Shown here one piece after another: positions 14,779 to 58,353 of a DNA stretch of 64,000 bases. A program made the translations under genes and the position numbers. Below the pieces are notes generated by a model that searched no databases, was not told the DNA's origin, and worked only from the letters and a program-made list of their open reading frames with translations. This DNA comes from Chloroflexota bacterium. GTDB lineage: Bacteria > Chloroflexota > Anaerolineae > Anaerolineales > Villigracilaceae. Positions within the stretch are counted from its first letter, which is position 1, and the number at the start of each line of letters is the position of its first letter. Location: NCBI GenBank assembly GCA_016223135.1, contig JACRPQ010000005.1, positions 176,873 to 240,872 on the forward strand. The letters are read 5' to 3'.

Positions 14779-16161
14779 TTACGGAAAATACTGCGCCAGC
14801 AGCGCTTCTGCCTCGGCGCTGCCCAAGTCACGCGCTTGAATCAAATGCTCATACATTGCCTGATTATCCCCGGTCTGTAAATACAACAACGCCAGGTGAA
14901 AATGCGCCGCAGCCGATTGAGGATCCGCCTCCACCGCTTGAAGGAGATACCACTTCGCTTCGTAGTAGCGCTCATCCAAAATCATCAGCCAGCCGAGCGT
15001 ATCGAGCGCCAGCGGGTCTTTGGGCTTCAACTCCAGCGCCTTGCGTGCGGCGGGAATGCCCACATCCCGCACGTAGGCGCCGTTGCGGGCGCAAAACTCC
15101 GCCAGCAGATGCCAGTAATGGGCATCTCGGGGGGCGACGGTGGTCGCATATTGATATGCCTCGAGTGCGGTGTTGAGGTCGCCCAAATTGGCAAACTCTT
15201 CTCCAATCGAAACATACCAGGCAGGGTTTTGCGGCTCGAGTTTGGCGGCAGTTTGAAATTCGCTCAATGCCTGACGATGACTGCCAATGCGCTGGAAATA
15301 CAAGCCGCGCAGACCGCGCACCAGCGGCGAATTCGGATTGAGCGTCAGCGCCCGGTCGAGGTGAGAAAGCGTCTCGTTCCCCGCTGTGTGCTGCTCTGCC
15401 TCTCCCAGCCATGCCCACGCCTCGGCATTTTTCTCATCGAATTCCACCGCTTCGGCAAAAGCGGCGCGCGCCAGCGCCCACTCGTCCACCAGCGCCAGCC
15501 CGCGCCCGATGATGACCTTCCCATCCGACGGCGTCTCGCTCAACGCGGACAAATTGACAGCGGCGCGAAGAGTCTGGGCAGCCGGGTCAAATTGCGGGTC
15601 CAGTTGCGAAGCGTGGAGCAGTTCCGTCACGGCGCGGTCGGGAGCAGTCAGGGTCAGCAGAAGTCCCAGGCGGTAGCGGACGGAGGCATCATCCGAATGC
15701 ACTTCGACATATTGCTGAAGGAACTGTGCGGCTTTGGCATATTCGCCGTTCTGTTGATGGATTTCCGCCAGGCGTGAGTAAAGATTTTCGGAGTGTGCCG
15801 GCTGGTCGAGCGCCTGAGTCCAAATCTCCGCCGCGCGCTGGGCATTGCCGTTGAGGTACCACACGTCTCCCCAGGCTACCCATCCTTCAGGAGAAAGCGC
15901 CTCCCGCTCGAACGCCTGCTGATAGACCTGCTCCGCACGAGCATACTCGCCCGCGTGATAAAAATAGTGTCCCGCCAGTTCATAGAAGTCGGGTCGCCAG
16001 GGAATACGCTGCGCCGCTCTTTCGTAATGTTCTGCCGATTCCAAATGAGAAGACGTGCGGGCGGCTTTACCTGCCTCTATATAGCCCGATGTGATGAACG
16101 ATGCCCAAGCCATCAACGCCAGCAAGATTGGGAGCAGGATTACTTTAAGCCTTTTTGGCAT
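14779..16161 (-). CDS. Tetratricopeptide repeat protein with N-terminal membrane anchor
   Basis: Repeated TPR-like helices (e.g. ALTLNPNSPLV, AVEADPQSAAAHFHLA). Confidence 0.85.
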   Translation of the reverse strand: MPKRLKVILLPILLALMAWASFITSGYIEAGKAARTSSHLESAEHYERAAQRIPWRPDFYELAGHYFYHAGEYARAEQVYQQAFEREALSPEGWVAWGDVWYLNGNAQRAAEIWTQALDQPAHSENLYSRLAEIHQQNGEYAKAAQFLQQYVEVHSDDASVRYRLGLLLTLTAPDRAVTELLHASQLDPQFDPAAQTLRAAVNLSALSETPSDGKVIIGRGLALVDEWALARAAFAEAVEFDEKNAEAWAWLGEAEQHTAGNETLSHLDRALTLNPNSPLVRGLRGLYFQRIGSHRQALSEFQTAAKLEPQNPAWYVSIGEEFANLGDLNTALEAYQYATTVAPRDAHYWHLLAEFCARNGAYVRDVGIPAARKALELKPKDPLALDTLGWLMILDERYYEAKWYLLQAVEADPQSAAAHFHLALLYLQTGDNQAMYEHLIQARDLGSAEAEALLAQYFP

Positions 16162-16210
16162 GGTTCAATTATACGGCTCGGTTCGGGTATTAGAGGGAAT
16201 CATTGAGTTG

Positions 16211-16742
16211 TTATAAATAGATATATGGATTCGTAATAGCAGTAGGGACTGTGGAAACTGTGGACAATCCAATCAAGCCCGAAGATGTGGGGGGAGGCAC
16301 ACGATCTCATACTAAATGCAGGGCTGATTCTGCCAGAATGTTTTTTTCATGCTGTGAAAAGTTTCGGGATGGTTCATCCACAATTTACCCACAGAAAACG
16401 ATGAGTTATTCCACTTTCCATATTTTGACAGGAGTAAAAATCGCCCCCCATATATGGGGGTGCGTAAAGGGCGAGCAATTGCCCTATTTTTCCACTTGTC
16501 CACAGGGAATGGTGTTTATCCACAAATAGAGGCGGGTTATCCACAGGAAGGTTGTTTGGACAAACGTTTTTGCAAGGAGGAATCCCCCCAAATCTGGTCA
16601 TGATTCTGGTACTCAGGGGGGATGATTTTGGGATTGATTTTGCGTACTTTTTGGACTGTGGATAAGTTATCTGGTTCAATCCACAAAAATAGGCTCTGCC
16701 CTGCCTAGAATGGGGATTGGTTTTTCGAAAAAGACATCCACA
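16211..16742. promoter_or_regulatory. oriC: Chromosomal replication origin (oriC): DnaA-box cluster with DnaA-trios and AT-rich DUE
   Basis: Perfect TTATCCACA at 16516, 16537 and 16657 (minus). 1-2 mismatch boxes at 16250, 16259, 16353, 16374, 16385, 16496, 16677, 16734. TAA-TAG-CAG-TAG-GGAC next to tandem boxes; AT-rich 16211-16232. Confidence 0.88.
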
Positions 16743-17329
16743 AAGGCGGCGAAAGTGGCAAAATGTTCGCGCAAATTCCAGAACAGCAGTGATGTGCGGC
16801 GGTAGTTGATATTATTTGCTTCCACCCCCAATGCCCGAACGCCCAGCGCATTGCAAAGAAACAGCGCGCGAGGCAGGTGGAAGCGCTGCGTTACCAGCGT
16901 CGCACTTTTCAGCCCAAAGATGGCTTTTGCCCGGTAACAGGTATCGTAGGTGCGTTTGCCGGCATAGTCCAACACGATTGCCTCGTCCGGAACGCCCAGC
17001 GCAAGGGCATATTGACGCATGGCTTCGGGCTCGTTGTAATTGAGCGACGGGTTGTCGCCGCTCATCAACAGTTTTTCCACCTTGCCCCTGAAGTAGAGGT
17101 TCGCTCCGGTCTCTACGCGATCCCTCAGGACGGCGGTTGGGGTTCCATCTCGACGCAAACCTGCGCCAAAGATGATGGCAACTCGTTCGGATGGTGCATC
17201 TGCCGCGCTGTAGATTTTGTTCCAAGTTTGCAGGGTGGTGATGAGACGCGGCAGGAGCAGCCCCAGCGCCCCCAAAATGATCGCCCACAGAATGAGCCGC
17301 CTGACCCATTTGAGAATCCGTTTCAACAT
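16676..17329 (-). CDS. SanA/YdcF (DUF218) family protein
   Basis: IIFGAG, LRDR, LMSGDN, EPEAM, DYAGKRTYDTC, VTQRFHLPRA. Confidence 0.88.
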   Translation of the reverse strand: MLKRILKWVRRLILWAIILGALGLLLPRLITTLQTWNKIYSAADAPSERVAIIFGAGLRRDGTPTAVLRDRVETGANLYFRGKVEKLLMSGDNPSLNYNEPEAMRQYALALGVPDEAIVLDYAGKRTYDTCYRAKAIFGLKSATLVTQRFHLPRALFLCNALGVRALGVEANNINYRRTSLLFWNLREHFATFAAFVDVFFEKPIPILGRAEPIFVD

Positions 17330-17397: not shown

Positions 17398-17537
17398 GCT
17401 CTGTTGCAAACATGAGATAGGCATGGTAAATCGCTCTGTTGCAAGGATTTTTCCGAGCGTACTCGGCGGTCTCTACCGCCGGGTTTGCGCAAGAGAGCGC
17501 AAACTACGCAGATTTTTTTTGATGATTGCAACAGAGC
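17398..17537. mobile_element. MITE family C (140 bp)
   Basis: Perfect 12-bp TIRs GCTCTGTTGCAA / TTGCAACAGAGC; exact 11-bp duplication AAATCTTGACT (17387-17397, 17538-17548); extra internal TIR copy at 17433. Confidence 0.8.
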
Positions 17538-17668
17538 AAATCTTGACTATTAACAGGACTGTAATGAAACAGAACGGCTTTGATATTGTTAAATTTGATG
17601 GAATCAATAAAATATAAGTAACCAAGGACGGTCCTTGGAGAAAATTTTTTTAGAGAAAGGATTTCATT

Positions 17669-17821
17669 ATGTTATTCGCTCCCCAAGAAAAAGGACAGGG
17701 CCTCGTCGAGTATGCGATCATTCTCGCGCTCGTGGCAATCGTTGTGATTGCTGTCATGCGGTTGCTGGGTCCCAAGGTCGGCAACACCTTCACCAATATC
17801 AACGACCAACTGCCCACGTAG
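17669..17821 (+). CDS. Flp family type IVb pilin (50 aa, below the ORF-track cutoff)
   Basis: MLFAPQEKGQGLVEYAIILALVAIVVIAVMRLLGPKVGNTFTNINDQLPT: G|QGLVEY prepilin motif; RBS AAAGGA; followed by a terminator. Confidence 0.92.
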   Translation: MLFAPQEKGQGLVEYAIILALVAIVVIAVMRLLGPKVGNTFTNINDQLPT

Positions 17822-17840
17822 CGGGCAAAAAACATTGCAG

Positions 17841-17869
17841 AAAGCCCCGTCATGCGACGGGGCTTTTTT
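17841..17869. terminator. Intrinsic terminator after the flp pilin
   Basis: AAAGCCCCGTC-ATGC-GACGGGGCTTTTTT. Confidence 0.85.
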
Positions 17870-17874
17870 GTTGG

Positions 17875-18543
17875 TCAGTCATCTGCAGCGGCGCGGGCAA
17901 CTTCTTCCGGTTCGAAGACGACTTCCTCTTTGCCGGTCAATTTTTGCTGTACTTTCTCCACAATCAGCCGCAGGTGACCGGAATGGGAGACGTAGTCCAG
18001 GTCATCCGCAGGGACGGCAAGGACCGGGCAAAGGGTGAAGTTATCTATCCACTCTTCGTACAGCCGGTTCAGCCCCTGCAGGTATTCGGGGGAAATGGTC
18101 CGCTCATAGTCCCGTCCGCGGCGGGCGATGCGGTTGATGAGGGTGGGGACGGAGGCTCGGAGATAAACGACCAGGTCCGGGGGCGGAAGGAGGCGGGAGG
18201 TCGTCTCGTAGAGGTCGCGGTAGGTTTGGTAATCCCGCTGATTCAGGTATCCTTGAAGGAACAGATTATAGGCGAACACCTCGGCGTCTTCATACACGCT
18301 GCGGTCCTGCACGACGGAAGTGGGGTGCTGTCCCAGTTTGTGATGGGATCGCAGGCGGTGCGTGAGAAAAAAGATTTGTGAGTGAAACGCCCAGCTATTC
18401 ATATCCTGATAGAAATCTTTGAGGTAGGGATTTTCGGTGACCGGTTCGTAGAACGGCTCCCATCCCAGACGAACACAAAGCATCTCCACGAGCGTGGATT
18501 TTCCAACACCGATATTCCCTGCTACAGCAACATATTTTTTCAT
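17875..18543 (-). CDS. Deoxynucleoside kinase
   Basis: P-loop AGNIGVGKST, EPV..NPYL..FYQD, QDRSVYED, PDLVVYLRA. Confidence 0.92.
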   Translation of the reverse strand: MKKYVAVAGNIGVGKSTLVEMLCVRLGWEPFYEPVTENPYLKDFYQDMNSWAFHSQIFFLTHRLRSHHKLGQHPTSVVQDRSVYEDAEVFAYNLFLQGYLNQRDYQTYRDLYETTSRLLPPPDLVVYLRASVPTLINRIARRGRDYERTISPEYLQGLNRLYEEWIDNFTLCPVLAVPADDLDYVSHSGHLRLIVEKVQQKLTGKEEVVFEPEEVARAAADD

Positions 18544-18570
18544 GTCTCTCCTCCGAAACACAAGCGCAAA

Positions 18571-19380
18571 TTAGGGAATCTCACCCGCCAGCTCTTTATC
18601 TATGACCTGTTTGAAAATATCGAGCGGCTGGGCGCCCACGATGGCAAGACCGTTGATGAAGAAGGTGGGGGTGGAACGCACGCCCAGGTTCATGGCAAAG
18701 TCGAGGTCAGCCTGAACGGCTTCGCGGAACCTGCCTTCTGTGATGCAGGAGTTGAACCTTTCCATGTCCAGCCCCAATTCTTGGGCATACTGCGCGTACA
18801 CGTCGCTGCCGAGGGCGTTGCTGCTGAAAAGTTTTTCATGGAATTGCCAATAGGCATTTTGTTCGCCGGCGCACATGACGGCTTCAGCGGCGGGAAAGGC
18901 GTCGGGGTGGATGGACGTCAGCGGGAAATGGCGGTACACCAGGCGAATCTTGCCCGGATAGGCATTGAGCAACGGCTGAAAGACCTGTTCATGCCAGCGG
19001 CGGCAGAAGGGACACTGGTAGTCGCTGAATTCAACGATGGTGATGGGCGCATCTTCCGGACCGATGGAGGGAAATCCATCGGCGGCAACCTCATAGCGGA
19101 TAAACTGCGGCTGTGCCGTAACGGGCGCTTCCACCACCGGACCTTGCGCCCGGGCGGCTGTCACCGGGCTTTTCTCCGCCGGGACGTATCCCCAAACTAC
19201 ATAGCCGAGCAGCACTCCTGCGGCAAAGGCAAGGACGGTCAAAATGGCGTAAAAGTGGCTGACCTTGAAAGTGAAAGACTCTTCTTGTTCGGTCCCCGCT
19301 TCCTCAAAAACTTCCGGTTCGATGACCACTTCCTCTTCGACTTTTTTCTTTCGTGTGGATTTGGTTGGCATGCCGGGCAT
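18571..19380 (-). CDS. Membrane-anchored DsbA/BdbD-like thiol-disulfide oxidoreductase
   Basis: GPEDAPITIVEFSDYQCPFC, HFPL, GVRSTPTFFING. Confidence 0.9.
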   Translation of the reverse strand: MPGMPTKSTRKKKVEEEVVIEPEVFEEAGTEQEESFTFKVSHFYAILTVLAFAAGVLLGYVVWGYVPAEKSPVTAARAQGPVVEAPVTAQPQFIRYEVAADGFPSIGPEDAPITIVEFSDYQCPFCRRWHEQVFQPLLNAYPGKIRLVYRHFPLTSIHPDAFPAAEAVMCAGEQNAYWQFHEKLFSSNALGSDVYAQYAQELGLDMERFNSCITEGRFREAVQADLDFAMNLGVRSTPTFFINGLAIVGAQPLDIFKQVIDKELAGEIP

Positions 19381-19523
19381 TATAACATGCCCCCCCTAGA
19401 GGCAACTTTAAGGCTGGAGCAGACGTATACTTAATACCCCATGAAAACGCATAATGGGCGTTTTCTAATGTTTGCTTTGCGCTAAAGAACGCAATCTATG
19501 CAGTGACTATTTTGGAGGTAGAA

Positions 19524-33866: not shown

Positions 33867-34445
33867 TCAATCAACCAGCGTCAAAAAATATTCGTGGAAA
33901 CGCGTGTCATTCGTCAGTTCGGGGTGAAAGGATGTAGCGAGGAGATGTCCCTGTTGGGCGGCGACAATCCTCCCGTCGGGGACGGATGCGAGTACTTTCA
34001 CATTGTCGCCCACCGACTCGATAATCGGCGCGCGAATGAAGACTGCATGGTACGGCGTCTCCGTCCCTGTGGCTTGTTTGAGTTCGGGGATGTCGAGGTC
34101 GGTCTCGAACGAATCGACCTGCCGCCCAAACGCATTGCGCTGGACTTTGATGTCCATAAGCCCAAGCAAAGGCTGGTCGCGGCTGACATCTTTCGAGAGA
34201 AAGATTGCGCCCGCGCACGTTCCCCAAATGGCGTGACGTTGACCAAATTGTTTCAAGGGGTCCATCAGGTTATAGGCGACTGCAAGTTTGCCGATGGTGG
34301 TGGATTCGCCGCCGGGGATGATAAGCCCGTCGAGACCGTTTAGATGTTCAGGTAAACGCACTTCGGCTGTTTCCACCTTCAGCCGTTTGAGCATGGCAAT
34401 GTGTTCTGCAAAATCGCCTTGCAGGGCAAGAACTCCAATTTTCAT
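33867..34445 (-). CDS. pdxT: PLP synthase glutaminase subunit
   Basis: GVLALQG, PGGESTT, GTCAG, RNAFGRQ, FIRAP, FHPE. Confidence 0.97.
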   Translation of the reverse strand: MKIGVLALQGDFAEHIAMLKRLKVETAEVRLPEHLNGLDGLIIPGGESTTIGKLAVAYNLMDPLKQFGQRHAIWGTCAGAIFLSKDVSRDQPLLGLMDIKVQRNAFGRQVDSFETDLDIPELKQATGTETPYHAVFIRAPIIESVGDNVKVLASVPDGRIVAAQQGHLLATSFHPELTNDTRFHEYFLTLVD

Positions 34446-34540
34446 AAGCTATACAGGTACACACGTAAACAAGTACACAAGTACACAAGTACACAAGGAA
34501 TAACGTGTTCACCTGTGTACCTGTCTACTTGCCTACTTCT

Positions 34541-35428
34541 TTACCAGCCTCGCCCCGCGATCCGTTCCGCTTCGGGCATCTGCGACACGTTCCGTCCAAC
34601 CATCGGCTCGCCGAGGTTCTTGCTCACCTCCGCCAGGATAGCGGGATCGTTGTAATGCGTCACGGCTTTGACGATTGCCGCAGCGCGCTTGGCGGGGTCT
34701 CCGCTCTTGAAGATGCCCGAGCCGACGAATACGCCGTCCATGCCGAGTTGCATCATCAACGCTGCGTCGGCAGGAGTTGCCACGCCGCCTGCCGCAAAGT
34801 TGACCACAGGCAAACGCCCAAGTTCCTTTGTCTCTTTCACGAGTTCATACGGCGCGCCGATCTCTTTGGCGTACGACATTAACTCTTCATCAGCCATCGT
34901 CGTCAGACGGCGGATTTCGCCAATCACCGCGCGCGCATGACGCACTGCTTCCACCACATCGCCTGTGCCCGCCTCGCCCTTTGTGCGGATCATCGCCGCC
35001 CCTTCGCCGATTCGCCGCAGCGCTTCGCCAAGGTTGCGGCATCCGCATACGAACGGCACTTTGAAGTTGTGTTTCAAAATATGATGCGCCTCATCCGCCG
35101 GGGTCAGCACTTCGGACTCGTCAATGTAATCCACGCCAATCGCTTCGAGAATCTGCGCCTCGACGAAATGACCGATGCGGCACTTTGCCATCACCGGAAT
35201 AGAGACGGCGTCCATGATCTTCAAGATCAGCTCGGGATCAGACATGCGTGCGACGCCGCCCTGTGCGCGAATATCGGCAGGCACACGTTCGAGCGCCATC
35301 ACGGCGCATGCGCCGGCGTCTTCGGCGATTTTCGCGTGTTCGGGTGTCACCACGTCCATGATGACGCCGCCTTTGAGCATTTGTGCAAGCCCCTTCTTCT
35401 CAGTCCAGGTACCAGTTTTGACTTCCAT
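34541..35428 (-). CDS. pdxS: PLP synthase lyase subunit
   Basis: [40 protein letters not shown]. Start at ATG 35428 behind AGGAG. Confidence 0.97.
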
Positions 35429-35619
35429 TTTTACACTCCTTGATTCCGCGACGTACGCGGTCATCCTGTAAATATAGATAAATTGTGCGGTTGAGATTCT
35501 ACCACGCAGACTAATCCGCTTCACGCGCCGCCGACGCCTGATTCGGTTTCGACGAATTTTTGTCTTCCTTTGAGCGTTCTCTCTCCCGTCTTTTCTGGGA
35601 GAGGGGGCTTCTGCGCCTC

Positions 35620-35690
35620 TTGACAAAACTTGTTGTTTGGATACAATTATGACAATAATACAATTAGTACAATAATACAAAGATACAATT
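35620..35690 (+). promoter_or_regulatory. Sigma70 promoter with tandem YtrA-like operator half-sites
   Basis: TTGACA-N16-TACAAT (35620-35647); direct repeat ACAATAATACAA at 35652 and 35669; TA(A/G)TACA half-sites. Confidence 0.7.
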
Positions 35691-41359: not shown

Positions 41360-42493
41360 CTACCCCAGATGCATCGGCATAATCACGTGCAGGAAATTGT
41401 CATCCCCCACCGGGCGGATGACTCCCGGCGCATTCGGCGCAGATGTTTCCAACGCCACATTCGGCGTGCGGATGACCTCCAGCGCTTCACGCAGGAACTT
41501 GACGTTGAATGCAATCAGCAACCCGCCGCCATCCACCGTTGCCTCGACAATGGTCTCGTTCTTGCCGGTTTCCTCCGAAATGGCGGAAATCTCCACCTCG
41601 CTGGGCTGTAAATCGCCCTGCGCGCTCTTGATATTCAACCGCGCCACATTCGACCCTTCACGGGCAAAAATTTCCGCCTGCTTGCACGCCTTCAATAGCG
41701 CAGCCGTCGAAACCAGCGTCCGCGACTTGTACGAGCGTGGAATAATCTGCTGATAATCGGGGAACGTCCCGTCAACCAACTGCGAAACGACCTCTACATC
41801 CTTCACGCGAAACACAACCTGACCCCGCCCCTTTGGCAGCGCCATATAAATCGGCTCCTCGCCGTCGCCTGCCACACGCGCCAGTTCCTTCAAGGCTTGA
41901 GCGGGGACGATTGCCGAAACAGGAGCAGGCACAGGCGCAACAAGAGCCGCCTTGCGGACGGAAAGACGGAACCCATCCGCCGCCGCCATTGTCATCTTAT
42001 CCTTTTCCACCTGAATCAAAACCCCCATCAACACCGGGCGCGCCTCATCGGTCGAAGCCGCAAACGCCACCTGATGAATCATCTCGCGGAAATCTCCCGC
42101 GTTGATTTGAATTGCGCCCTCCAAATCCGTCACCGGCAGAGGCGGAAACTCCTGCGCATCAATACACTTGATGTCGTTGGTCGAAGTCCCGCAGCGCACA
42201 TTCAGCGTTTGCGTTGGAACATCCAGTTTCAAGCTGACCTGATCGCCCGGCAGCGTGTTCACCAGGTCGCTGAACGTGCGCGCCGGCACGGTGGTTGAGC
42301 CTTCCTCCTCGATGCGCGCCGGAATCCAGCACGTAATTCCCAATTCGAGATTGGTGGCGGAAAGGCGCAGCCGTCCCTCGTCCGAAGCAAGCAGCACGTT
42401 CGCCAGCACCGGCAGGGTGCTGCGCGGCGAAACGGCTTTCGAAACAATTCCCAAACCGCGGGCTAAATTCTCCTGAAGCACGGTCACTTTCAT
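41360..42493 (-). CDS. dnaN: DNA polymerase III beta sliding clamp
   Basis: MKVTV.QENL, LSATNLE, STDEARPVLMG, AADGFRL, GTFPDY, FNVKFL, VIMPM. Confidence 0.96.
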   Translation of the reverse strand: MKVTVLQENLARGLGIVSKAVSPRSTLPVLANVLLASDEGRLRLSATNLELGITCWIPARIEEEGSTTVPARTFSDLVNTLPGDQVSLKLDVPTQTLNVRCGTSTNDIKCIDAQEFPPLPVTDLEGAIQINAGDFREMIHQVAFAASTDEARPVLMGVLIQVEKDKMTMAAADGFRLSVRKAALVAPVPAPVSAIVPAQALKELARVAGDGEEPIYMALPKGRGQVVFRVKDVEVVSQLVDGTFPDYQQIIPRSYKSRTLVSTAALLKACKQAEIFAREGSNVARLNIKSAQGDLQPSEVEISAISEETGKNETIVEATVDGGGLLIAFNVKFLREALEVIRTPNVALETSAPNAPGVIRPVGDDNFLHVIMPMHLG

Positions 42494-42599
42494 GATGTGT
42501 CTCCTCAGTGGATGATGACCCTCATATTTTACTTCATAAAATGCGCCGCACCCGAAACGACAAGAGACATTTGCCCGTTTGGTGCGGCGCACTCTCGCG

Positions 42600-44492
42600 C
42601 TAGAACCCCGTCACCAGCGAAATCCCAACCGCCAGCAGAATGAACAGCAGTTGCAGCGCAAACAACGCCGCAAACACATATACCACAACCATCCACGGCG
42701 AACGCGCCGTTTTCTTTTTCTGGACTTCTTGACCTTCTGCCAGCCTCTGCAGCGACTCTGCCGCCTGCACCGCATCCTCCGCCCAGACAAGATTCTGCGC
42801 TTCATTCTGGACGATGATCCTGTTCCCGCCAAACGAGCGAATCCACTCCGGAGCATTTACCGCCAAACTCCCGCTCAGGATGACGGCTTGAAACTCGCCG
42901 TCGGGCTTTTTGTCGGGCGTGGTTGCCGTCACTTGAACCTTCGCGCCCAATTTCGACAACGCCGTCCTCACCGCATCTGCCGCTCCATCGCCCGCGTCAA
43001 CAACAAGCGCCGCAAATGCGCTTTGCTTCTCTGCCAGCGCATCCGCCAGCGAAGCGCTGTCTCTGCGCAGGGTGCTCAAATGATAGAGAAACACCACACT
43101 GAATAAAAACAGCACTTGGAAAGTGTTGAGCAGGGAGTTGAGAAAATCGCTTCCCACGTCGCCCGTCAACAATGCGCGGAACAGTTGATAGATCAACCCC
43201 ACCGCGCTTGCCATTCCGCCAAGGATCGCAGCGAACAATGCCAGATAAAGGTAGATCTTGCGAAGCACCGACCTTCTGGCATGATCGCCCATCTCACCCT
43301 GCGCCAGCGCTTCCGCTTGCATCGGTCGCCACGTCATCAGCCAAAGCGGCAAGCCGACCACAATGGACGAGATGGCTACCGCAAGGGTGGAGCGACCGGC
43401 ATCGCTCATCGAAAAGAATGGACTGGTAGTCATGTCAATAATGAATGACAACAATGTAGCGACGCCCGTGAACAAAACAGCCAGCCCGATGAAAGCCAGA
43501 ATATAGTAGTACAACCGCTTCATCCCCGCCTGGCGAACCTTGTCGCCGACGGCTTCGATGTGACGGTTGAGCCAGTGACTGTGGTACATCCACACCATCC
43601 CCAACGGCACGCCCACTGAGATTGGTCCGCCCAATTGCTGGACAAAATATTGCGCGCTCCAGTCTGCGCCGAGCAGACGGGTGACGAGGATATTCACCAG
43701 CATGGAAGCGGTGGTGATCACGGTAATCGCCCCGCCCAGTGAGAGAAGGTAGAGAATGCCGAGGCGGAGAGTCGAGCCCATTTCGGCGGGATCAGTTAGA
43801 GAGTCCTGAATGACGCGCCACGAATACACCCACACAGGCGCTCCCACGATGAGCAATGCCGCCCCGTTGACGGCGGTCTCACGTCCCATTTGTCCCAAAA
43901 CATCACCGGGGATGTAAATCAGAAAACGTAAAACCTGCTGTGCGCCGAAGATCGTCATCAGCAAGCCGTAGAGCGTCCAAAGGTAACGGTACAGGCGGCG
44001 GACCTCGGCAAAATTTTCCCGGTTTTTTAGCGTCGTCCACTCGCCGCGCAGGATATTCCAGAAATATGCCGCCAGCAGCAGGTTCATGAGGATGGCGATC
44101 AGGTTGTCGGCAAGGGTTTGATAGCGAAATGCGCTAAAGGCGCGTTCTGCGCCCAGCCCGGCGGCTTGGGCGAGTGTGCGGTCAATGAACGAGAGGACGT
44201 TTTGCGCCACAGGGATGAGGGTGGCAAGCAGGATGGCATACAGATACACTGCCCGCAGGCTGGCTTCTTGTTCCTCTTCCTCCCCCGCCGCTGCTTTTTG
44301 CGCCCACAGCCAATGGACAAGGAAAATTGGCACGCCCACCAAAATCAATGCCAGCGCTTGAGCGAGCGCCTCCGCCCCGCCGGAAACGGTCTTATTCACA
44401 ATGGAGCGCAGCAGTCCAATCAACCCCCATGCCACCACTTCGACGCTAATGAAGGCAACGACGTAAAAATAAAGACGGCGGATGGTTTTCAT
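42600..44492 (-). CDS. Multi-pass membrane protein with DUF5671-like repeats
   Basis: Repeated RRLY.Y, VG.P.W..HW and LR.VYLY units. Confidence 0.75.
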   Translation of the reverse strand: MKTIRRLYFYVVAFISVEVVAWGLIGLLRSIVNKTVSGGAEALAQALALILVGVPIFLVHWLWAQKAAAGEEEEQEASLRAVYLYAILLATLIPVAQNVLSFIDRTLAQAAGLGAERAFSAFRYQTLADNLIAILMNLLLAAYFWNILRGEWTTLKNRENFAEVRRLYRYLWTLYGLLMTIFGAQQVLRFLIYIPGDVLGQMGRETAVNGAALLIVGAPVWVYSWRVIQDSLTDPAEMGSTLRLGILYLLSLGGAITVITTASMLVNILVTRLLGADWSAQYFVQQLGGPISVGVPLGMVWMYHSHWLNRHIEAVGDKVRQAGMKRLYYYILAFIGLAVLFTGVATLLSFIIDMTTSPFFSMSDAGRSTLAVAISSIVVGLPLWLMTWRPMQAEALAQGEMGDHARRSVLRKIYLYLALFAAILGGMASAVGLIYQLFRALLTGDVGSDFLNSLLNTFQVLFLFSVVFLYHLSTLRRDSASLADALAEKQSAFAALVVDAGDGAADAVRTALSKLGAKVQVTATTPDKKPDGEFQAVILSGSLAVNAPEWIRSFGGNRIIVQNEAQNLVWAEDAVQAAESLQRLAEGQEVQKKKTARSPWMVVVYVFAALFALQLLFILLAVGISLVTGF

Positions 44493-44548
44493 ATTTCCTC
44501 TTGAAATTTCTTTGTGTACTTCGTGTTCTTCGTGGATAATCTCACCGA

Positions 44549-45022
44549 TTATTTCGGCGGTTCCGAGTACCAGCTATAATCCCAAAAATTGTAAATGGGC
44601 AGCGACGAGATTTTCCATGCGCCGCTCTGCCGCACGAGGATGGCTCTCTGTTCGCTGCGGTACGGCGGAGAGAACGGATCGCCGCCGCTGTAAATCTGCG
44701 CTACTTCCACCGAGGCTTCGTCCCCGTTGATGTGGGAGGCGCCGATGTCCACAGCGTCGTTTTGAGGGTTGATGTATCCCTGCAGGAACGGGCGGCGGAA
44801 TTCTTCGTAGGTGGGCTTGTACTTCAGGTCGGCAAGGTAGCCATACGCCTTCTCATAATCCCCATTGATCAGCGCCAACACGTAGTTGTGGACGACGCCC
44901 TCCGGCGTATCCTCCGGTAGGTAGGTTTGAGCGTCCTGCCTGACAAAGAACACACCCAGCGCAACTACCACCAAAATCCCAATGCCAATCAGAATGCCGG
45001 TCAAAAAACGATCTTGTTTCAT
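44549..45022 (-). CDS. Hypothetical membrane-anchored protein (NTF2-like)
   Basis: N-terminal TM helix; TPEGVVHNYVLAL..GDYEKAY motif. Confidence 0.7.
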   Translation of the reverse strand: MKQDRFLTGILIGIGILVVVALGVFFVRQDAQTYLPEDTPEGVVHNYVLALINGDYEKAYGYLADLKYKPTYEEFRRPFLQGYINPQNDAVDIGASHINGDEASVEVAQIYSGGDPFSPPYRSEQRAILVRQSGAWKISSLPIYNFWDYSWYSEPPK

Positions 45023-49474: not shown

Positions 49475-51601
49475 ATGACACCGGAAAAGATTGGGCGCTA
49501 CGAAATCAGGGCAGAATTGGGACGCGGCGGTATGGCGACCGTTTATCACGGCTACGATCCGCGCTTCGAGCGTGAAGTGGCGGTCAAAGTGTTGCCGTCC
49601 GAATTGCTGCACTCCGATCCGCAGTTCAAACTGCGCTTCGAGCGTGAGGCAAAAATCATCGCCCAATTGGAGCATCCATCCATCGTGCCGGTTTATGACG
49701 TGGGAGACGAAAACGGTCAACCTTACTTTGTCATGCGGTACATGAACGGCGGCTCGCTGGCGGAACGCATCAAGAAAGAGATGATGAGCGTCGAGGAAGC
49801 CGCGAAAATTTTAGGTCAGATTGCTCCCGGCTTGGACGAGGCGCACAGCAAAGGCATCGTCCACCGCGACCTGAAACCCAGCAACATCCTGTTCGACTCC
49901 AAAGGCACGCCCTACATCTCCGATTTTGGCATTGCCAAGTTGACCCAGGCGCAGGCGAGCAGCGTCACGGGCAGCGGCATCATCGGCACCCCTGCTTACA
50001 TGGCGCCCGAACAAGCCGCCGGCGAAGCCGTGGATGGACGCTCGGACATTTACGCCCTCGGCATTATTCTCTTCGAGATGTTGACCGGGCGTCAGCCATA
50101 CGAGGCGGATACGCCCATGGCGGTTGCAATCAAGCACATCACCGAGCCGGTGCCGCGTATTCTGGAAGCCAACCCCAACCTCCCCCCCGAGGTGGATGAC
50201 ATCATTCAAAAGGCAATGGCAAAACGCAAGGAAGACCGCTTTGCCACTGCCATGGAATTGGTGGACGCCCTGCGCATGGTCGGTTCCACCGCCACAACGC
50301 AGATGCGCACCGTCAAGGCAGCGCTCAAAACGGTGGCTGCTGTGGAGAAAGCCGCCGAAAAAGCTGCCGTGCCGCCCGCTCGAAAGCCGCTGAGCATCTG
50401 GCTGTTTATCGTCCCCATCCTTTTGCTGGGAATGCTGGGGGGAGGCTACGCTTTGTTGAGCAGGATCAACCGTCCCGTAGAAACCGAAGCGCCGGCGCCC
50501 ATCCCCACGCGAACCACCGTTTCAGTCTCGCCGACTTCCCCCGCCCCCACCCTCAACCCCACCAAGCCGGCGCCGCTTCCTCCCCTTCCAACCGACACTC
50601 CGCTTCTTCCCTCGCCGACGCCTGCGCCGCCCAAACTTCCCGTCATCGGCGGCGCGGATAAGATAGCCTTCGTCGCCAACAACGAAATCTGGCTGATGAA
50701 CATGGACGGTTCGCAACTGGAGCAGGTGACTTTCGACGGCGCCGTCAAAACCGACCTGCAATGGCTGGCGCCCGATTACCGCTACCTGCTCTTCATCAGC
50801 GGAAAAATCGTCAAATATTACGACAGCCAGAGCGGCGCCGTGGATACGCTGGTCAACTTCCCTTCGGAAGTTTCGGTGGATGCCTTTCAGGTCTCGCACG
50901 ACGGCAAGCAGGCGATGATTGCCATGAGCAACAATATTTTCGTGGTGAAGTTCGACATCGCCGCGCTCAAAACAGTCACGAACCGCCGTCAACTTGTTCA
51001 ACTGGAGGGAGGCTGCCTCGTGCAGCAGGTTCCGAAAACATACACCATCGCCCGTGTGCGCGAAGCGCGCTGGTCGCGGGATGACAAACTGGTGGCGTGG
51101 CTCTTCACCGGTAACGACGCCGTCAACCCCAATCTTCAGGCAGAGCAGGTGAGCGTGCTCGATATTTCCGCCTGCAAGCCCGAACTGATTGACCAAAAGG
51201 ATAATTTCCCCGGCACGCGCTTTGTCCCCTCCGGGTATCAATCGCGCGAAATCCCCGATTTCGATTGGGACGGATACGAACTGTTTGCCTTCAACACCTC
51301 GCGCCGCAACAACGGCTGGGGCGACCTGCACATCTATAACTGGAAACTTTACAAAGGCGTCCATTATTCCCCGATTGGTCCCTGCTGCTACCGCGACTCA
51401 CGGTGGAGCCCCGACGGCACTTACATTCTGCTTGCCTTCCAAGACCTCAGCCTCGGTCCCGACGCCAAGACCATGCTTTATTATGTTCCGGTCGGCGAAC
51501 TGGGGGCAGGCGCCAAATTCACCCCTCTGCCCTTGCCGCCGGATTTCTTCAAAAACCCGCGCGAGGCGCCTCAACCCGCCCTGCGCCCTGCGGTTCCCTA
51601 G
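49475..51601 (+). CDS. Membrane Ser/Thr protein kinase with extracellular beta-propeller-like domain (paralog of 9181-11199)
   Basis: GRGGMATV, VAVK, HRDLKPSN, DFG, GTPAYMAPEQ; TM helix; shared C-terminus CCYRD.R.SPDG...PQPALRP. Confidence 0.95.
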   Translation: MTPEKIGRYEIRAELGRGGMATVYHGYDPRFEREVAVKVLPSELLHSDPQFKLRFEREAKIIAQLEHPSIVPVYDVGDENGQPYFVMRYMNGGSLAERIKKEMMSVEEAAKILGQIAPGLDEAHSKGIVHRDLKPSNILFDSKGTPYISDFGIAKLTQAQASSVTGSGIIGTPAYMAPEQAAGEAVDGRSDIYALGIILFEMLTGRQPYEADTPMAVAIKHITEPVPRILEANPNLPPEVDDIIQKAMAKRKEDRFATAMELVDALRMVGSTATTQMRTVKAALKTVAAVEKAAEKAAVPPARKPLSIWLFIVPILLLGMLGGGYALLSRINRPVETEAPAPIPTRTTVSVSPTSPAPTLNPTKPAPLPPLPTDTPLLPSPTPAPPKLPVIGGADKIAFVANNEIWLMNMDGSQLEQVTFDGAVKTDLQWLAPDYRYLLFISGKIVKYYDSQSGAVDTLVNFPSEVSVDAFQVSHDGKQAMIAMSNNIFVVKFDIAALKTVTNRRQLVQLEGGCLVQQVPKTYTIARVREARWSRDDKLVAWLFTGNDAVNPNLQAEQVSVLDISACKPELIDQKDNFPGTRFVPSGYQSREIPDFDWDGYELFAFNTSRRNNGWGDLHIYNWKLYKGVHYSPIGPCCYRDSRWSPDGTYILLAFQDLSLGPDAKTMLYYVPVGELGAGAKFTPLPLPPDFFKNPREAPQPALRPAVP

Positions 51602-52605
51602 AGCGCCCGCACCATTTCACGCACCAGCGCTGGACCCCGATACACCAGTCCCGTATAGACCTGCACCAGACTCGCCCCCATGGCGAGTCTCTTTTTGGCG
51701 TCTTCGGGACTCATAATCCCGCCGGCGCTGATGATGGGGATTCTTCCCTCGACCAACTTTACCACCCGGTTCAACACCGCTTCGCTGCGGACCCGAAGCG
51801 GGCTCCCGCTTAACCCGCCTGATTCACGCTGATACCTTGACCTCGCCCCCTCGCGCGCCAGCGTTGTGTTTGCGGCGATAATGCCGTCCATGCCTTTTTC
51901 GAGAATGACGCCGACTGCATCCTCCAGTTCGTCTTCGCTCATATCCGGTGAGATTTTTACGAGGATGGGAAGTTTGACGTTCCGCGTTCCGCGTTCCACG
52001 TTGATTTGGGCGAGCAGGTGTTCCAGCATCTCACGTCCCTGCAGGCGGCGCAATCCGACGGTGTTGGGGGATGAGATGTTGATGGTCAGATAATCTGCCA
52101 GCGGGGCGAAGACTTTCATCAATTCAATGTAATCTTTCGCTGCTTCCTCAAGAGGGGTATCTTTATTCTTTCCGAGATTCACCCCCAGAATCACAGACTT
52201 TTGCCCACTGGTTGCTGATAACTGCTTGCTGACAAACTTAGCCCCCTTGCTGGGAAATCCCATGCGATTGATGACCGCCTCGTCTTCCACCAGCCGAAAC
52301 ACGCGCGGACGGGGATTCCCAGCCTGAGCCTCCAGCGTGACCGTTCCCACTTCGATGTGACCGAATCCCAGGGCGGCGAGTCCGCGAATGGCGAGGGCGT
52401 CCTTGTCGTAGCCGGCGGCAAGCCCGACGGGGTTTTTGAAGGTCAAGCCGAATGCCTGCACGGGTTTGGTTGGCGTTTTATAAAGTTGCGTGAGCAGCCA
52501 ATTGGAAATTGGAAAATTGCCCGTGATGCGTAAAAGTTGGAGCGTGATTCGATGCGCGGTTTCGGGGTCGAGCGAAAAAAGCAAAGGGCGCAGCAATTGG
52601 TACAT
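51598..52605 (-). CDS. pyrD: Quinone-dependent dihydroorotate dehydrogenase
   Basis: DPETAH, NPVGLAAGYDK, NRMGF, NISSPNT, KISPD, GGLSG. Confidence 0.96.
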   Translation of the reverse strand: MYQLLRPLLFSLDPETAHRITLQLLRITGNFPISNWLLTQLYKTPTKPVQAFGLTFKNPVGLAAGYDKDALAIRGLAALGFGHIEVGTVTLEAQAGNPRPRVFRLVEDEAVINRMGFPSKGAKFVSKQLSATSGQKSVILGVNLGKNKDTPLEEAAKDYIELMKVFAPLADYLTINISSPNTVGLRRLQGREMLEHLLAQINVERGTRNVKLPILVKISPDMSEDELEDAVGVILEKGMDGIIAANTTLAREGARSRYQRESGGLSGSPLRVRSEAVLNRVVKLVEGRIPIISAGGIMSPEDAKKRLAMGASLVQVYTGLVYRGPALVREMVRAL

Positions 52606-52638
52606 TTTTTCCTTTGAGTTCCTTCATGCCCTTCGTGG

Positions 52639-53148
52639 TTAAAAATGTTTCTGTCCGCTTTTATCCAAAAAATACTGGATGATTTCCTCCTCGGGGTGTA
52701 GCACGTTCATCAGCGTAAACATCGCCGCCAGTTCGCCGCGGTGATGCGTATTGTGGTTGGGCGGCTGGACAACCATCTGCCACAACGGCAGGGTAAAGGT
52801 TTCACCGCGAGGGTTGGTGTAGGTCACAGGGCGTTGGAGAGTCTCTTCGCTTTGTTGGGCGAGGAAGGCACGCATGTTCTTTTCCACGTCCGCCCAATAC
52901 GCGCGGATGGATGCGATGGTCGGGAAATCCTTCGGCTCGAGGAACTCGCCCTTTTCGCCGCGCCAGCGCTGCTGCCACATACGCTCGGAACTCATCATGT
53001 GCACCAGCGTCGCGTGAACGCTGTCCCACGAGTGTCCCTGCTTGCGGAAGAGCTGCTCCTCGGTCAGCGTTTCAGCGGCGGCGAGGTAACGCTGGTTTGC
53101 CCAGTAGTTGTAATCGTACAATTCAACCAAGTAATCTTTCAAGTTCAT
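52639..53148 (-). CDS. DinB family protein
   Basis: YNYWANQR, S.HATLVH, N.THHRG. Confidence 0.85.
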   Translation of the reverse strand: MNLKDYLVELYDYNYWANQRYLAAAETLTEEQLFRKQGHSWDSVHATLVHMMSSERMWQQRWRGEKGEFLEPKDFPTIASIRAYWADVEKNMRAFLAQQSEETLQRPVTYTNPRGETFTLPLWQMVVQPPNHNTHHRGELAAMFTLMNVLHPEEEIIQYFLDKSGQKHF

Positions 53149-53194
53149 GTGAAATCCTTCGTTTACAGGTTGTCACGTTTGAAGGTTGGAGCGC

Positions 53195-53809
53195 TCAGCC
53201 GTTGGAACGTTCCAAAAACTTCCTTGTCTCATCAATCTTTCCACTTTCCACCTTCCCAGTCTCCTCCCAATAATCCAGCAACTGTGCGATGGTCAACACC
53301 GCATACAGCGAATAACCCGCCTGCGCCAGCGACTCCTTCGCGCCCGACTGGCGGTCAACCAGCACAACCACATCCTTCACGACCAGCCCCGCGCCGGTCA
53401 ACTTTTCGATGGCTTCGAACTTGCTCCCGCCGGTGGTGGCGAGATCGTCAATGACCACGACCGTTTCGCCTGCGTGATACTCGCCCTCGATCTTGGCTTT
53501 CGTGCCGTACGTCTTGGTTTCCTTGCGCGGGTAGATCATGGGATAGTTCCCCGCGAGCGAGATGGCGGTGGCGATGGGGATGGCGGCGTAGGGCAGGGCG
53601 GCGATGCGCGAGAAGCGGAGTGTGGAAAGTAGAGGCAGGTAGGCTTGAGCAATATCCGCGAGCAATTTGGGGTAAGTGATAACCTGCCGCAGGTCAATGT
53701 AGATGGGGGATTTGAGTCCCGATTTAAGGGTGAACTCGCCGAATTTGATACAGCCTGCAGAGAGCAGCCCGTCCGCGAGGGATGCAAGGCGCGAGTCAAG
53801 TTGTGTCAT
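53195..53809 (-). CDS. pyrE: Orotate phosphoribosyltransferase
   Basis: KFGEFTLKSGLKSPIYIDLR, RKETKTYG, VVIDDLATTGGS. Confidence 0.96.
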   Translation of the reverse strand: MTQLDSRLASLADGLLSAGCIKFGEFTLKSGLKSPIYIDLRQVITYPKLLADIAQAYLPLLSTLRFSRIAALPYAAIPIATAISLAGNYPMIYPRKETKTYGTKAKIEGEYHAGETVVVIDDLATTGGSKFEAIEKLTGAGLVVKDVVVLVDRQSGAKESLAQAGYSLYAVLTIAQLLDYWEETGKVESGKIDETRKFLERSNG

Positions 53810-53990
53810 GTGGTATTCCTTTTTATTCGGGGGATTATAACTTCTCGTATCACAACCTGAGCAAGAGCCGTAATTAACTGCGTTCATTCGGCGTCAAGTC
53901 AGTCTGGGACTATGAGGGCGGGGCGCTTTTACAGTTCTCAAATCTATAGACCTTATCGTCTCTATGAGCGATAACGATGGGAGCATTGTG

Positions 53991-54641
53991 ATGTCCAGCA
54001 AAATGCATGTCGCGGAACTTTGGCGTTACCCGGTCAAATCTTTGGCAGGGGAACAAATTGACGTTGCCGAGATCCACGCGGATGGGATTGACGGTGACCG
54101 CCGCGTGTTGGTCTACAACGAACAGACTCGCAGCCTCGTCACGTCTCGGACTCATCCGAAGTTGCTCGGTCTCAAGGCTACGATCAACCAGAAAGGCGTT
54201 GCGCTCATCAACGGACGCCCGTGGGACGATTCTGAATCGGCGCAGGCGATCATCGCCGCGGCTGGACCACATGCCCGCCTGATCGAATGGGATGGACTCG
54301 AGCGCTTCGATATTCTGCCTCTGCTGGTTGCCACCGATGGCGCGATCCAGGAGTTTGGCTATGACCGCCGCCGTCTGCGCCCGAATATCATCATCGGCGA
54401 CGTGGAAGGGCTGGCAGAGCGCGAGTGGGCGGGTCGCCGTATGCGCATCGGCGACGTTGTGATCGAATTCGCTCAACTGCGCGGACGGTGCGTGATGACC
54501 ACGTACGATCCCGATACACAAACGCAAGACCCGGCGGTATTGCGCCATATCGTCAAAAAATTCAATGGCACACTGGCGCTGGATACAAGAGTTATTCAAG
54601 GCGGGCGCATCTCCGTTGGCGAAGCGGCTGAGTTAATCTAA
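53991..54641 (+). CDS. MOSC domain protein
   Basis: LWRYPVKS, GDRR, RRLRPN, RCVMTT.DP. Confidence 0.88.
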   Translation: MSSKMHVAELWRYPVKSLAGEQIDVAEIHADGIDGDRRVLVYNEQTRSLVTSRTHPKLLGLKATINQKGVALINGRPWDDSESAQAIIAAAGPHARLIEWDGLERFDILPLLVATDGAIQEFGYDRRRLRPNIIIGDVEGLAEREWAGRRMRIGDVVIEFAQLRGRCVMTTYDPDTQTQDPAVLRHIVKKFNGTLALDTRVIQGGRISVGEAAELI

Positions 54642-54701
54642 TCTTCCTCATAGTGACGAATGAAAAAACTTCCGAACATTGATTTGCTCGGAAGTTTTTG
54701 T

Positions 54702-55538
54702 TTACGCCATGTTCAATTCTCTTTTGATGTTCAAAATCTGATCCCTGATCTCCGCCGCAGCCTGAGCGGGATTCGACGCCCGCGAGATGGCGCGCGAGAT
54801 GGGGATGAGCAATCCCTTGCCGTCGCTTCGCAGCCCGGACCTGAGAGTGGACTCCAGTTCCCCGCCCTGCGTCCCCACCCCGGGCGCGAGGAACCACAAA
54901 TTGGGCGCGGCGGCGCGGATCATTTCCATAATCTGCGGGTGCGTTGCGCCGACGACGATGCCTACGTTGTTTTTCTCGTTCCATTGTTCTGCAAGTTTCG
55001 CCACGTAAATGTAGAGCGGCATGGGCATATCCGACCCCATCGGCATGACCAGCAGGTTTTGCAAATCCATCGAACCCGCGTTGGACGTTTTGCACAGCAG
55101 GAAGACGCCCTTTTCTGGATTCTGGATGAACGGCTCGATGGAGTCTTTGCCGAGATAGGGACTCAATGTGATGCAATCCGCTCCAAGATTTTCAAAGGCG
55201 GATTTCGCGTACGCCTCCGCTGTGGAGGCGATGTCGCCGCGCTTCGCGTCTAGGATGACGGGGATCTTCGAGCCGAGTCGATTCGACTCTTCTCGAATGG
55301 CTTCGATGACCTGCTGGAGCGCCGTCCACCCGTCCGCGCCGAAGACCTCGAAGAACGCCGCGTTGGGTTTGAATGCCGCGGCGTAGGGAGCGGTCGCTCG
55401 GACGAGAGTCAGGCAAAAGTCGAGGGCGGAAGCGGGGGAAGGCTCTTTGAGGTCGGAGAGGTGCGGGTCGAGTCCAATGCAGAGGAGGGACGAGCAATCG
55501 TCGACTCGTTTTTCGAGAAAAGAGAAAAAACTTTCCAT
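54702..55538 (-). CDS. pyrF: Orotidine-5'-phosphate decarboxylase
   Basis: LCIGLDP, FKPN.AFFE, LDAKRGDIAST, LCKTSN, LAPGVGTQGG. Confidence 0.96.
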   Translation of the reverse strand: MESFFSFLEKRVDDCSSLLCIGLDPHLSDLKEPSPASALDFCLTLVRATAPYAAAFKPNAAFFEVFGADGWTALQQVIEAIREESNRLGSKIPVILDAKRGDIASTAEAYAKSAFENLGADCITLSPYLGKDSIEPFIQNPEKGVFLLCKTSNAGSMDLQNLLVMPMGSDMPMPLYIYVAKLAEQWNEKNNVGIVVGATHPQIMEMIRAAAPNLWFLAPGVGTQGGELESTLRSGLRSDGKGLLIPISRAISRASNPAQAAAEIRDQILNIKRELNMA

Positions 55539-55627
55539 GCGAATCCTTTTTACCGCGAAGAGCGCAAAGTCCGCTAAGAAAATCTTTAAAAACCTTCGCG
55601 CTCTTGGCGTGCTTTGCGGTTATTTTT

Positions 55628-56611
55628 TTAGGCTTTGCCCAACACCATCGCGAGCAATGCCATTCTAACGTAAAGACCGTATTCCATCTGACGGAAATAC
55701 GCGGCGCGGGGATCGTCGTCGAAGTCCATGCTGATTTCGGTGACGCGCGGAAGCGGGTGCATGACGATCATCTCCTGTTTGGCGGCTTTCATGATTTCGG
55801 GGTCAATCACGTACGCGCCTTTGACCTTTTCGTAATCGGCGGGATCCTCGAAGCGTTCCTTCTGGACGCGCGTGACGTACAGCACGTCGGTTTCGGGCAG
55901 GACTTTGTCGAGTGTGCTGTATTCGGCTTGAGGGATGCCCTTCGCCGCGACTTCGTCCATCACTTCCTTGGGCATTCGCAAAATATCGGGCGAGACGTAG
56001 TTCAACCTGACGTGGAACAGCGAGAGCAAACGCGCCAGCGAGTGGACGGTGCGCCCGTATTTCAAATCGCCGAGCATGGTCACGGTCAGCCCGTCCACCA
56101 CGCCGACGCCGAGTTCCTCGAAGATGGTGAACAGGTCGAGCAGCGCCTGGGTGGGATGTTCGCCCGTGCCGTCGCCGGCGTTGATGACGGGTTTGCGCGC
56201 CGCCTTTGCCGCAATCGCCGCCGAGCCCGTTTCGGGATGGCGCAGCACGATGACATCGGCATAACATTCGAGCGTGCGGACGGTGTCGGTCAGGCTCTCG
56301 CCTTTCGTCACCGAGGAATACTTCACTTCATTGATGGGGATGACCGAGCCGCCCAGCCGCTCCATCGCGGCGGTAAACGACGATGAGGTGCGCGTGGACG
56401 GTTCGTAAAACAGATTGGCAAGAATTTTTCCTTTGAGCAGGTCGAACGTCCCGACGCGCTCGACCATGCCGCGCATCTCATGCGCCACGCCGAAGATGTA
56501 TTCCAAATCGGCGCGGTTGAACTGTTTGACGGATATGATGTCCTTGCCATACCAGTCGGCTTGTTTGTTTTCGCCGAAGGGCAGGTAAGGGGAGGGGGAT
56601 TGGGTGGGCAT
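55628..56611 (-). CDS. pyrB: Aspartate carbamoyltransferase catalytic subunit
   Basis: [32 protein letters not shown]. Start at ATG 56611 behind AGGAG. Confidence 0.96.
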
Positions 56612-56710
56612 GGATACTCCTTGGTAATTGGTAAGTGGTAATTGGTGATTGGTGATTGGAGACTCGCTTCTTTCTTCGGGTGAGGCGGATTCGGTTTCGA
56701 TGGGCATTTT

Positions 56711-57997: not shown

Positions 57998-58013
57998 CGT
58001 TTTGCCTCCATGG

Positions 58014-58349: not shown

Positions 58350-58353
58350 GGTA

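Follow-up and report, generated by a model that had tools for sequence, protein, structure and literature searches.

A candidate DnaA-dependent chromosomal origin with a Bacillus subtilis-like unwinding module, uncoupled from dnaA, in an uncultured Anaerolineales bacterium

Genes, DnaA boxes and the unwinding module at the locus

The window, by which we mean the whole 64-kb stretch of DNA that was analysed, contains a gap of 514 bp (16162–16675) between a gene for a TPR protein and a gene of the DUF218/SanA/YdcF family. Both flanking genes are as the initial annotation had described them (a TPR gene and a sanA-like gene). The gap is largely taken up by a non-coding candidate origin element of approximately 460 bp (16205–16665), the features of which are collected in Table 1. 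When the gap was compared with Rfam, the sole match was a snoRNA at chance level (E = 0.9), and a structured RNA at this position was rejected.

Twelve DnaA boxes were identified within 493 bp, where about 0.9 would be expected. Three of these are perfect copies of TTATCCACA, at 16516(+), 16537(+) and 16657(−), while four have one mismatch (16259(−), 16374(+), 16385(+) and 16496(+)) and five have two (16250(−), 16488(+), 16555(−), 16677(+) and 16734(+)). The earlier count of three perfect boxes stands, and its "about eight near-perfect" boxes are reached only if sites with two mismatches are included. The two-mismatch boxes at 16677 and 16734 sit in the 3' end of the DUF218 coding sequence and are probably not part of the element. 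Over the whole window there are 18 boxes with no more than one mismatch, a number equalled in 0 of 100 shuffles, and seven of the 18 are packed into 407 bp at this locus. Within the array of boxes that share one orientation, those at 16496, 16516 and 16537 are spaced by 20 and then 21 bp.

Table 1. Features of the candidate origin element, its flanking genes and the dnaN operon (column identity refers to 20 aligned modules from relatives)
Feature	Position	Strand	Remarks
Left flanking gene, TPR protein	14779–16161	−	specific to this lineage; spoVS there in relatives
AT-rich DNA unwinding element (DUE), predicted	16205–16232		28 bp; 75% A+T, against 55% G+C in the genome
Four DnaA-trios, 5'-TAA TAG CAG TAG-3' (3'-GAT GAC GAT AAT-5')	16234–16245	+	mean column identity 0.92 over 20 modules
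G/C spacer GGAC, trios to boxes	16246–16249		4 bp; GGNN in all relatives
Two abutting DnaA boxes directed at the trios	16250–16267	−	GTTTCCACA (2 mismatches), TTGTCCACA (1 mismatch); column identity 0.89
Motif A, degenerate copy of the CCCATATATGGGG palindrome, CCCGAAGATGTGGGGGG	16278–16294		relatives CCCCATATATGGGG
Degenerate DnaA box	16353–16361	−	window TGTGAAAAG, relatives TGTGGAAAG; column identity 0.91
DnaA-box pair 11 bp apart, TCATCCACA and TTACCCACA	16374–16393	+	kept in DUF218-linked relatives
Motif D, TCCATATTTTGAC (consensus TCCATATTTTGGA)	16417–16429		column identity 0.87
Motif B, perfect palindrome CCCCCATATATGGGGG	16445–16460		column identity 0.90
Same-orientation DnaA-box array	16488–16545	+	TTTTCCACT at 16488, TTGTCCACA at 16496, TTATCCACA at 16516, TTATCCACA at 16537
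Weak inverted DnaA box TTGTCCAAA	16555–16563	−	part of conserved TGTCTGGACA
Motif C, CCCCCCAAATCTGG (consensus TCCCCCAAATATGG)	16584–16597		column identity 0.81
Right-edge perfect DnaA box	16657–16665	−	lineage-specific, only in closest relatives L007–L009; column identity 0.39
Right flanking gene, DUF218/SanA/YdcF family	16676–17329	−	outside the origin
Operon of a 157-aa gene, DUF5671 and dnaN	41360–45022	−	25–28 kb from the origin; adjoins the DUE side of the origin in three relatives

The left edge of the element is built, in order, of an AT-rich stretch, TAA-TAG-CAG-TAG, GGAC and TGTGGAAAC-TGTGGACAA. Here GTAATAGCAGTAG occupies 16233–16245, GGAC 16246–16249, TGTGGAAAC 16250–16258 and TGTGGACAA 16259–16267, and the string that had been quoted for this edge is letter-exact in the sequence. 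The B. subtilis string with which it had been compared is also right, since the published module reads TAGTAGAAGTAATAGTAG-GGCC-TGTGGATT-TGTGGATAA in the 5'-to-3' direction (PMC8287927 supplement). Thermodynamically, the 30-mer at 16210–16239 is the least stable in the region and the third least stable in the 64-kb window (top 0.02%).

A candidate basal unwinding system (BUS; Richardson 2019, Pelliciari 2021) has been described as at least three trios (3'-NAN-5') lying no more than 16 bp from a DnaA box, and was predicted in 85% of 2070 origins, where the commonest box arrangement was tandem and the commonest box-proximal trio was 3'-GAT-5' (PMC8287927). The consensus of the DnaA-trio is likewise 3'-GAT-5' (PMC10721633). 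At the locus analyzed here, four trios begin 4 bp from the box at 16250, the tandem boxes are oriented onto the trio strand, and the box-proximal trio is GAT, a layout that is kept in 20 modules from relatives. Written in the notation of the PMC8287927 supplement, the module is AACAGGTGT-CAAAGGTGT-CAGG-GATGACGATAAT (trios GAT GAC GAT AAT). In that notation, the supplement gives AATAGGTGT-TTAGGTGT-CCGG-GATGATAAT... for B. subtilis, AAAAGGTGT-AAAAGGTGT-CGGG-GATGATGAT... for S. elongatus and AATAGGTGT-CAAAGGTGT-CGGG-AATGATAAT... for D. maricopensis.

Conservation of the module and its position relative to dnaA and dnaN

To place the element among its relatives, we relied on two sets of loci. The first was fetched around DUF218 homologues (57–98% identity) and comprises 82 loci, that is, 80 species representatives and two further loci, one of them from a closed relative of 4.99 Mb. 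In 17 of the 82, the same box cluster lies directly downstream of DUF218, and the density of DnaA boxes in those clusters is 1.8 per kb vs 0.24 per kb elsewhere. The second set consists of 80 metagenomic loci found with the DnaN of the window as the query. Three of these (L123, L124 and L127) carry the module directly upstream of an operon formed by a 165-aa gene, DUF5671 and dnaN, and on the other side of the module are a 349-aa gene and a deoxynucleoside kinase gene. These relatives had escaped the initial annotation, as had the dnaN gene of the window itself (41360–42493, minus strand), which lies 25 kb to the right of the candidate origin.

Throughout its length, the module is collinear in another 20 species or populations of the Anaerolineales. 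From the DUE side, the AT-rich stretch is followed by GTAATAG(Y)AGTAG, GGNN and the two tandem boxes. Next come a motif resembling CCCCATATATGGGG, a box in inverted orientation and the box pair, then TCCATATTTTGG and the palindrome CCCATATATGGGGG, and finally three boxes that share one orientation, with spacings of 20 and 21 bp, and the TCCCCCAAATATGG motif. The box pair (16374–16393 in the window) belongs to the DUF218-linked type only and is missing from all three dnaN-linked modules. Over the 20 aligned modules, the named elements (boxes, trios and palindromes) have a column identity of 0.77–1.00, and the remaining intergenic DNA 0.47. The perfect boxes at 16516 and 16537 are invariant in 20 of 20 modules (column identity 1.00), and the box at 16496 reaches 0.92. 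The stretch equivalent to the DUE is variable in sequence, with an A+T content of 59–89% in all 20 modules. A profile of the module matched the window at 16209–16607 (E = 1.7e-88); every module-bearing locus gave a single match, and nothing further turned up in the remainder of the window or across 1.45 Mb of related DNA.

Three gene contexts were seen. Three loci have the order kinase gene, 349-aa gene, origin, 165-aa gene, DUF5671 and dnaN; 15 species have DUF218, origin and spoVS; and the window has DUF218, origin and TPR, with the dnaN operon 25–28 kb rightward. The left neighbour may thus be TPR, spoVS or the 157/165-aa gene, and the right neighbour DUF218 or the 349-aa gene. Because the structure of the module is constant while both neighbours change, it is selected as an independent unit and does not owe its conservation to the control of any single gene. 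Its collinearity across these contexts leaves neither chance nor a gene-specific promoter as an explanation, and favours a module that would act as an autonomous origin. The junction of TPR, origin and DUF218 in the window was confirmed in independent assemblies. An identical DUF218 protein is encoded on contig JBMOML010000058.1 of MAG GCA_049325175.1, where the element is at about 238,450–238,910, and also in several metagenome assemblies from groundwater. Homologues of this protein, like those of the window's DnaN, carry Anaerolineales or Chloroflexota labels. The metagenome runs in which the sequence occurs were sampled from groundwater, biofilms, hot springs and the subsurface.

Several smaller observations concern the edges of the module. 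Directly beside the AT-rich edge of the origin, 15 related species have a spoVS gene whose promoter, TTGAAT-N17-TACAAT, is close to consensus (L007 11195–11455, with equivalents in L008–L057). The promoter points away from the DUE, at a distance of approximately 10–25 bp. SpoVS is a predicted nucleic-acid-binding protein. By analogy with the transcription that adjoins E. coli oriC, the spoVS-linked promoter might aid the opening of the origin in these relatives. The arrangement is lost in the window, where spoVS is absent, as it is from the 81-kb extension. On the right side, a deoxynucleoside kinase gene (PF01712) is found 1–2 kb from the origin in all three contexts (window 17875–18543, L127 5371–6045, L008 8559–9224); in L007, the kinase gene is about 6 kb off, on the opposite side of the origin. 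Between the window and a contig from a hot-spring population (run X18), the match starts at 16197 and extends rightward only, so that the two sequences diverge exactly at the DUE edge, and several species-representative contigs end within approximately 100 bp of that edge (L012, L017, L018, L019 and L057). This suggests that the boundary of the origin is a hot spot for breakpoints, whether of rearrangement or of assembly.

The initial annotation had reported no dnaA for at least 16 kb to the left and 47 kb to the right of the element, and further searches agree. No open reading frame of at least 300 aa in the window has a DnaA-family Pfam match, and tblastn with E. coli DnaA as the query found no match in the window or in the 168 fetched loci. 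With a further 10 kb of the contig on the left and 7 kb on the right (183,938–265,019), dnaA was still not found, so that the dnaA-free span around the origin comes to 26 kb leftward and 54 kb rightward. In the closed relative, the roughly 44 kb of DNA examined near the module and dnaN likewise contain no dnaA, and tblastn with E. coli DnaA found none within up to 10 kb of dnaN in 80 dnaN loci from relatives. Uncoupling of the module from dnaA looks clade-wide. Such uncoupling is common elsewhere, for example in E. coli, Caulobacter and the cyanobacteria.

The relation to dnaN is closer. In the closed relative, where the module is at about 1,034,150–1,034,700 of JADKIW010000001.1 (assembly GCA_016721115.1), the distance to dnaN is 22 kb, and in every lineage seen the module is within 0–25 kb of dnaN. 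This persistent nearness fits an origin. The ancestral position was likely directly upstream of the dnaN operon, and some relatives have retained it. In the window, dnaN encodes 377 aa and is downstream of the DUF5671 and 157-aa genes, a gene trio kept in approximately 39 related loci. Two DnaA boxes with one mismatch each (44392 and 44531) flank the start of DUF5671, and, judging by their position, DnaA may control the dnaN operon through them.

The case for an origin and its alternatives

The proposal that had been made for this locus was an oriC with a B. subtilis-like unwinding module, and every part of it that is open to testing on sequence passed: the box cluster, the trios, GC spacer and tandem boxes, the AT-rich stretch, and the lack of a dnaA nearby. 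The element is also kept as one unit in 20 relatives, whatever their flanking genes. We consider that 16205–16665 is the DnaA-dependent chromosomal oriC of this uncultured Anaerolineales bacterium, with a probability of roughly 80%. The assessment draws on 81 kb of this genome and approximately 44 kb of the closed relative. As the position of dnaA was not found and the local GC skew is uninformative, we infer the use of the origin in vivo from the structure and conservation of the element.

Over the 81 kb, GC skew is −0.07 to the left of the cluster and +0.01 to the right, and is dominated by individual genes. This small shift runs in the expected direction, yet the cumulative minimum, which covers 81 kb only, is not at the cluster. 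Across the flanks of 15 relatives, no consistent change in the sign of GC skew was found at the module. The orientation of genes does not diverge at the site, and most of the rightward genes are on the minus strand. Across 64 kb, the gradient to be expected in read coverage is below 2%.

Neither skew nor gene orientation thus lends support to firing at this site, and dnaA and the rest of the genome lie outside the DNA examined. Both points leave room for a cluster of DnaA boxes that is not an origin, such as a datA- or DARS-like site for titration or recharging of DnaA, or for a secondary origin, with the principal oriC elsewhere (for example, next to dnaA). We regard this as improbable. Like the window element, E. 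coli datA and DARS and the DnaA-box clusters of B. subtilis are box clusters away from dnaA. Those sites, however, are not known to have a trio module or a DUE, whereas in the window element both are present and conserved. The full set seen here, with trios, GC spacer, DUE and tandem boxes in the right orientation, is not known from any titration or reactivation site. The location of the module at 0–25 kb from dnaN in every lineage seen also speaks against a mere titration site or secondary origin. Published predictions offer an indirect hint. The DoriC-based origins predicted for seven Chloroflexi genomes, including Anaerolinea thermophila, carry weak modules only (PMC8287927 supplement). The predicted dnaA-proximal origin of A. 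thermophila has a module score of just 7, with a 16-nt spacer and a two-mismatch box, and the other six entries score 4–10, vs 15–27 for canonical origins (PMC8287927 supplement).

Could the boxes instead serve a DnaA-controlled promoter or regulatory region of a flanking gene, be it TPR, spoVS or DUF218? A passage in PMC13438810 notes that DnaA regulates genes, and in 15 relatives the strong spoVS promoter abuts the AT-rich stretch. However, the module is kept with three different left neighbours and two right neighbours, its 12 boxes and trios go far beyond the needs of a promoter, and in the window no sigma-70-like promoter was detected within 16162–16675. We therefore think this reading very unlikely. 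That the element is the inactive relic of an origin, replaced by a new one working elsewhere after rearrangement, seems equally far-fetched: the left flank has indeed been rearranged in this lineage, with TPR in place of spoVS and the dnaN operon displaced by 25 kb, but an inactive relic would decay, and the boxes, trios and palindromes in the window are as strongly conserved as in the relatives, as the E-value of the profile match attests.

Taking the element to be an origin, it would work in the manner of the B. subtilis basal unwinding system. Domain IV of DnaA would first bind 16516 and 16537, the two invariant boxes of high affinity, together with the boxes at 16496 and 16657, and the weaker boxes would then be filled by ATP-DnaA. 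The abutting boxes at 16250–16267, which point to the GC spacer, could serve as the starting point of a DnaA-ATP filament growing onto the four trios (16234–16245, plus strand). By stretching the trio strand, the filament would melt the AT-rich DNA at 16205–16232, and the helicase would be loaded there.

The likeness to B. subtilis oriC (incC) extends to the AT-rich stretch, the GAT-type trios, the 4-nt G/C spacer and the two tandem boxes, in the same order and orientation, and the proximal trios (TAA TAG. TAG) are identical. In B. subtilis, the BUS consists of DnaA-boxes 6/7, the GC spacer, the DnaA-trios and an AT-rich 27-mer (PMC6669920, PMC8287927, PMC10721633). There are also differences: the boxes abut as 9+9 in the window vs 9+8 in B. 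subtilis, the window has four trios where B. subtilis has six or more, its element is not between dnaA and dnaN, and its extra CCCATATATGGGG motifs are without a counterpart in B. subtilis. The B. subtilis origin is bipartite, with a second box cluster upstream of dnaA, and no such counterpart is known for the window element.

With oriC of Synechococcus elongatus PCC 7942, the element shares a 9+9 tandem of boxes, a spacer of 4 nt and trios of the GAT type. That origin is upstream of dnaN and unlinked from dnaA, a type of placement that resembles the three relatives with the module upstream of the dnaN operon. However, the cyanobacterial box consensus is TTTTCCACA, and the linkage to dnaN is loosened to 25 kb in the window. 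As in E. coli oriC (the mnmG–mioC region), a box cluster lies beside a DUE with sites for accessory proteins interspersed, although in the window these sites are predicted. The E. coli origin is likewise a chromosomal origin tens of kb from dnaA. The 13-mer repeats, IHF and Fis sites and GATC/SeqA control, however, belong to E. coli, and the layout of tandem boxes, GC spacer and GAT trios is not obvious there (supplement row NC_000913). The predicted oriC module of Deinococcus maricopensis has an identical second box, TGTGGAAAC, a GGGC spacer (GGAC in the window) and TAG/TAA trios, but it has 8 trios and belongs to another phylum (PMC8287927 supplement).

Origins that lie away from dnaA and carry such an unwinding module are already well known in other phyla, and general understanding of bacterial initiation is unchanged by this one. 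In the Anaerolineales, an order that is large and for the most part uncultured, it would be the first clear canonical unwinding module, and also the first clear case in the phylum; our literature search returned no paper describing an origin from the Anaerolineae or Anaerolineales. It is also a case in which a module is shown to keep its structure while its neighbours change. The conserved module could be used as an anchor for coverage-based estimates of growth rate, for rotating or checking closed MAGs, and for the re-annotation of origins in the clade.

Origin-specific palindromes and other features of the window

The sole unexplained feature of the element is an origin-specific motif, CC(C)ATATATGG(G), which is present in four copies (motifs A to D in Table 1) interspersed with the DnaA boxes. 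One of these, motif B, is the 16-bp palindrome that had been noticed at the outset and is present as described. The CCCATATATGGGG palindrome and its three degenerate copies keep their positions in all three gene contexts. In 1.4 Mb of Anaerolineales DNA, all 40 matches to the palindrome with no more than one mismatch were inside origin modules.

Several explanations of the palindrome were considered and rejected. A site for a general transcription factor is ruled out by the lack of copies outside origin modules in the 1.4 Mb and by the lack of enrichment elsewhere in the window. With at least five mismatches, the palindrome is not a variant of the DnaA box. It is terminator-like on the minus strand, but it is kept in a second gene context with other flanking genes and has four related copies, which speaks against a simple terminator. 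The palindrome string is absent from the searchable literature.

As a working hypothesis, the palindromes most likely bind a putative accessory or architectural origin protein, and they offer a lead to a possible new origin-binding factor. A bolder and rather doubtful version is that they are the sites of a new, clade-specific regulator or architectural protein, and that the origin of approximately 400 bp is a cassette whose flanks have been exchanged repeatedly by breaks exactly at its edges. If this were true, a regulator that binds the palindromes would represent a new level at which initiation is controlled in the Chloroflexota.

Other features of the window can be noted briefly. Between the DUF218 and kinase genes is a MITE/REP-like element of approximately 105 bp (17433–17537). 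It has terminal inverted repeats of 12 bp (GCTCTGTTGCAA), a third copy of which is at 17398, and contains hairpins and a T-run. In four metagenomes, its contig word depth is about 10 times as high as around it, which shows it to be multi-copy. At 17635–19434, long open reading frames on the plus strand (248 and 350 aa, with no Pfam match) are probably spurious, and the public gene calls there are the kinase gene (17875–18543, minus strand), a DsbA-like gene (18571–19371, minus strand) and a Flp/Fap pilin gene (17669–17821, plus strand). Further to the right are pdxT/pdxS (33867–35680) and pyrD, pyrF, pyrB and a dihydroorotase-like gene (51598–59427), housekeeping clusters that are consistent with a chromosomal and not a mobile context.
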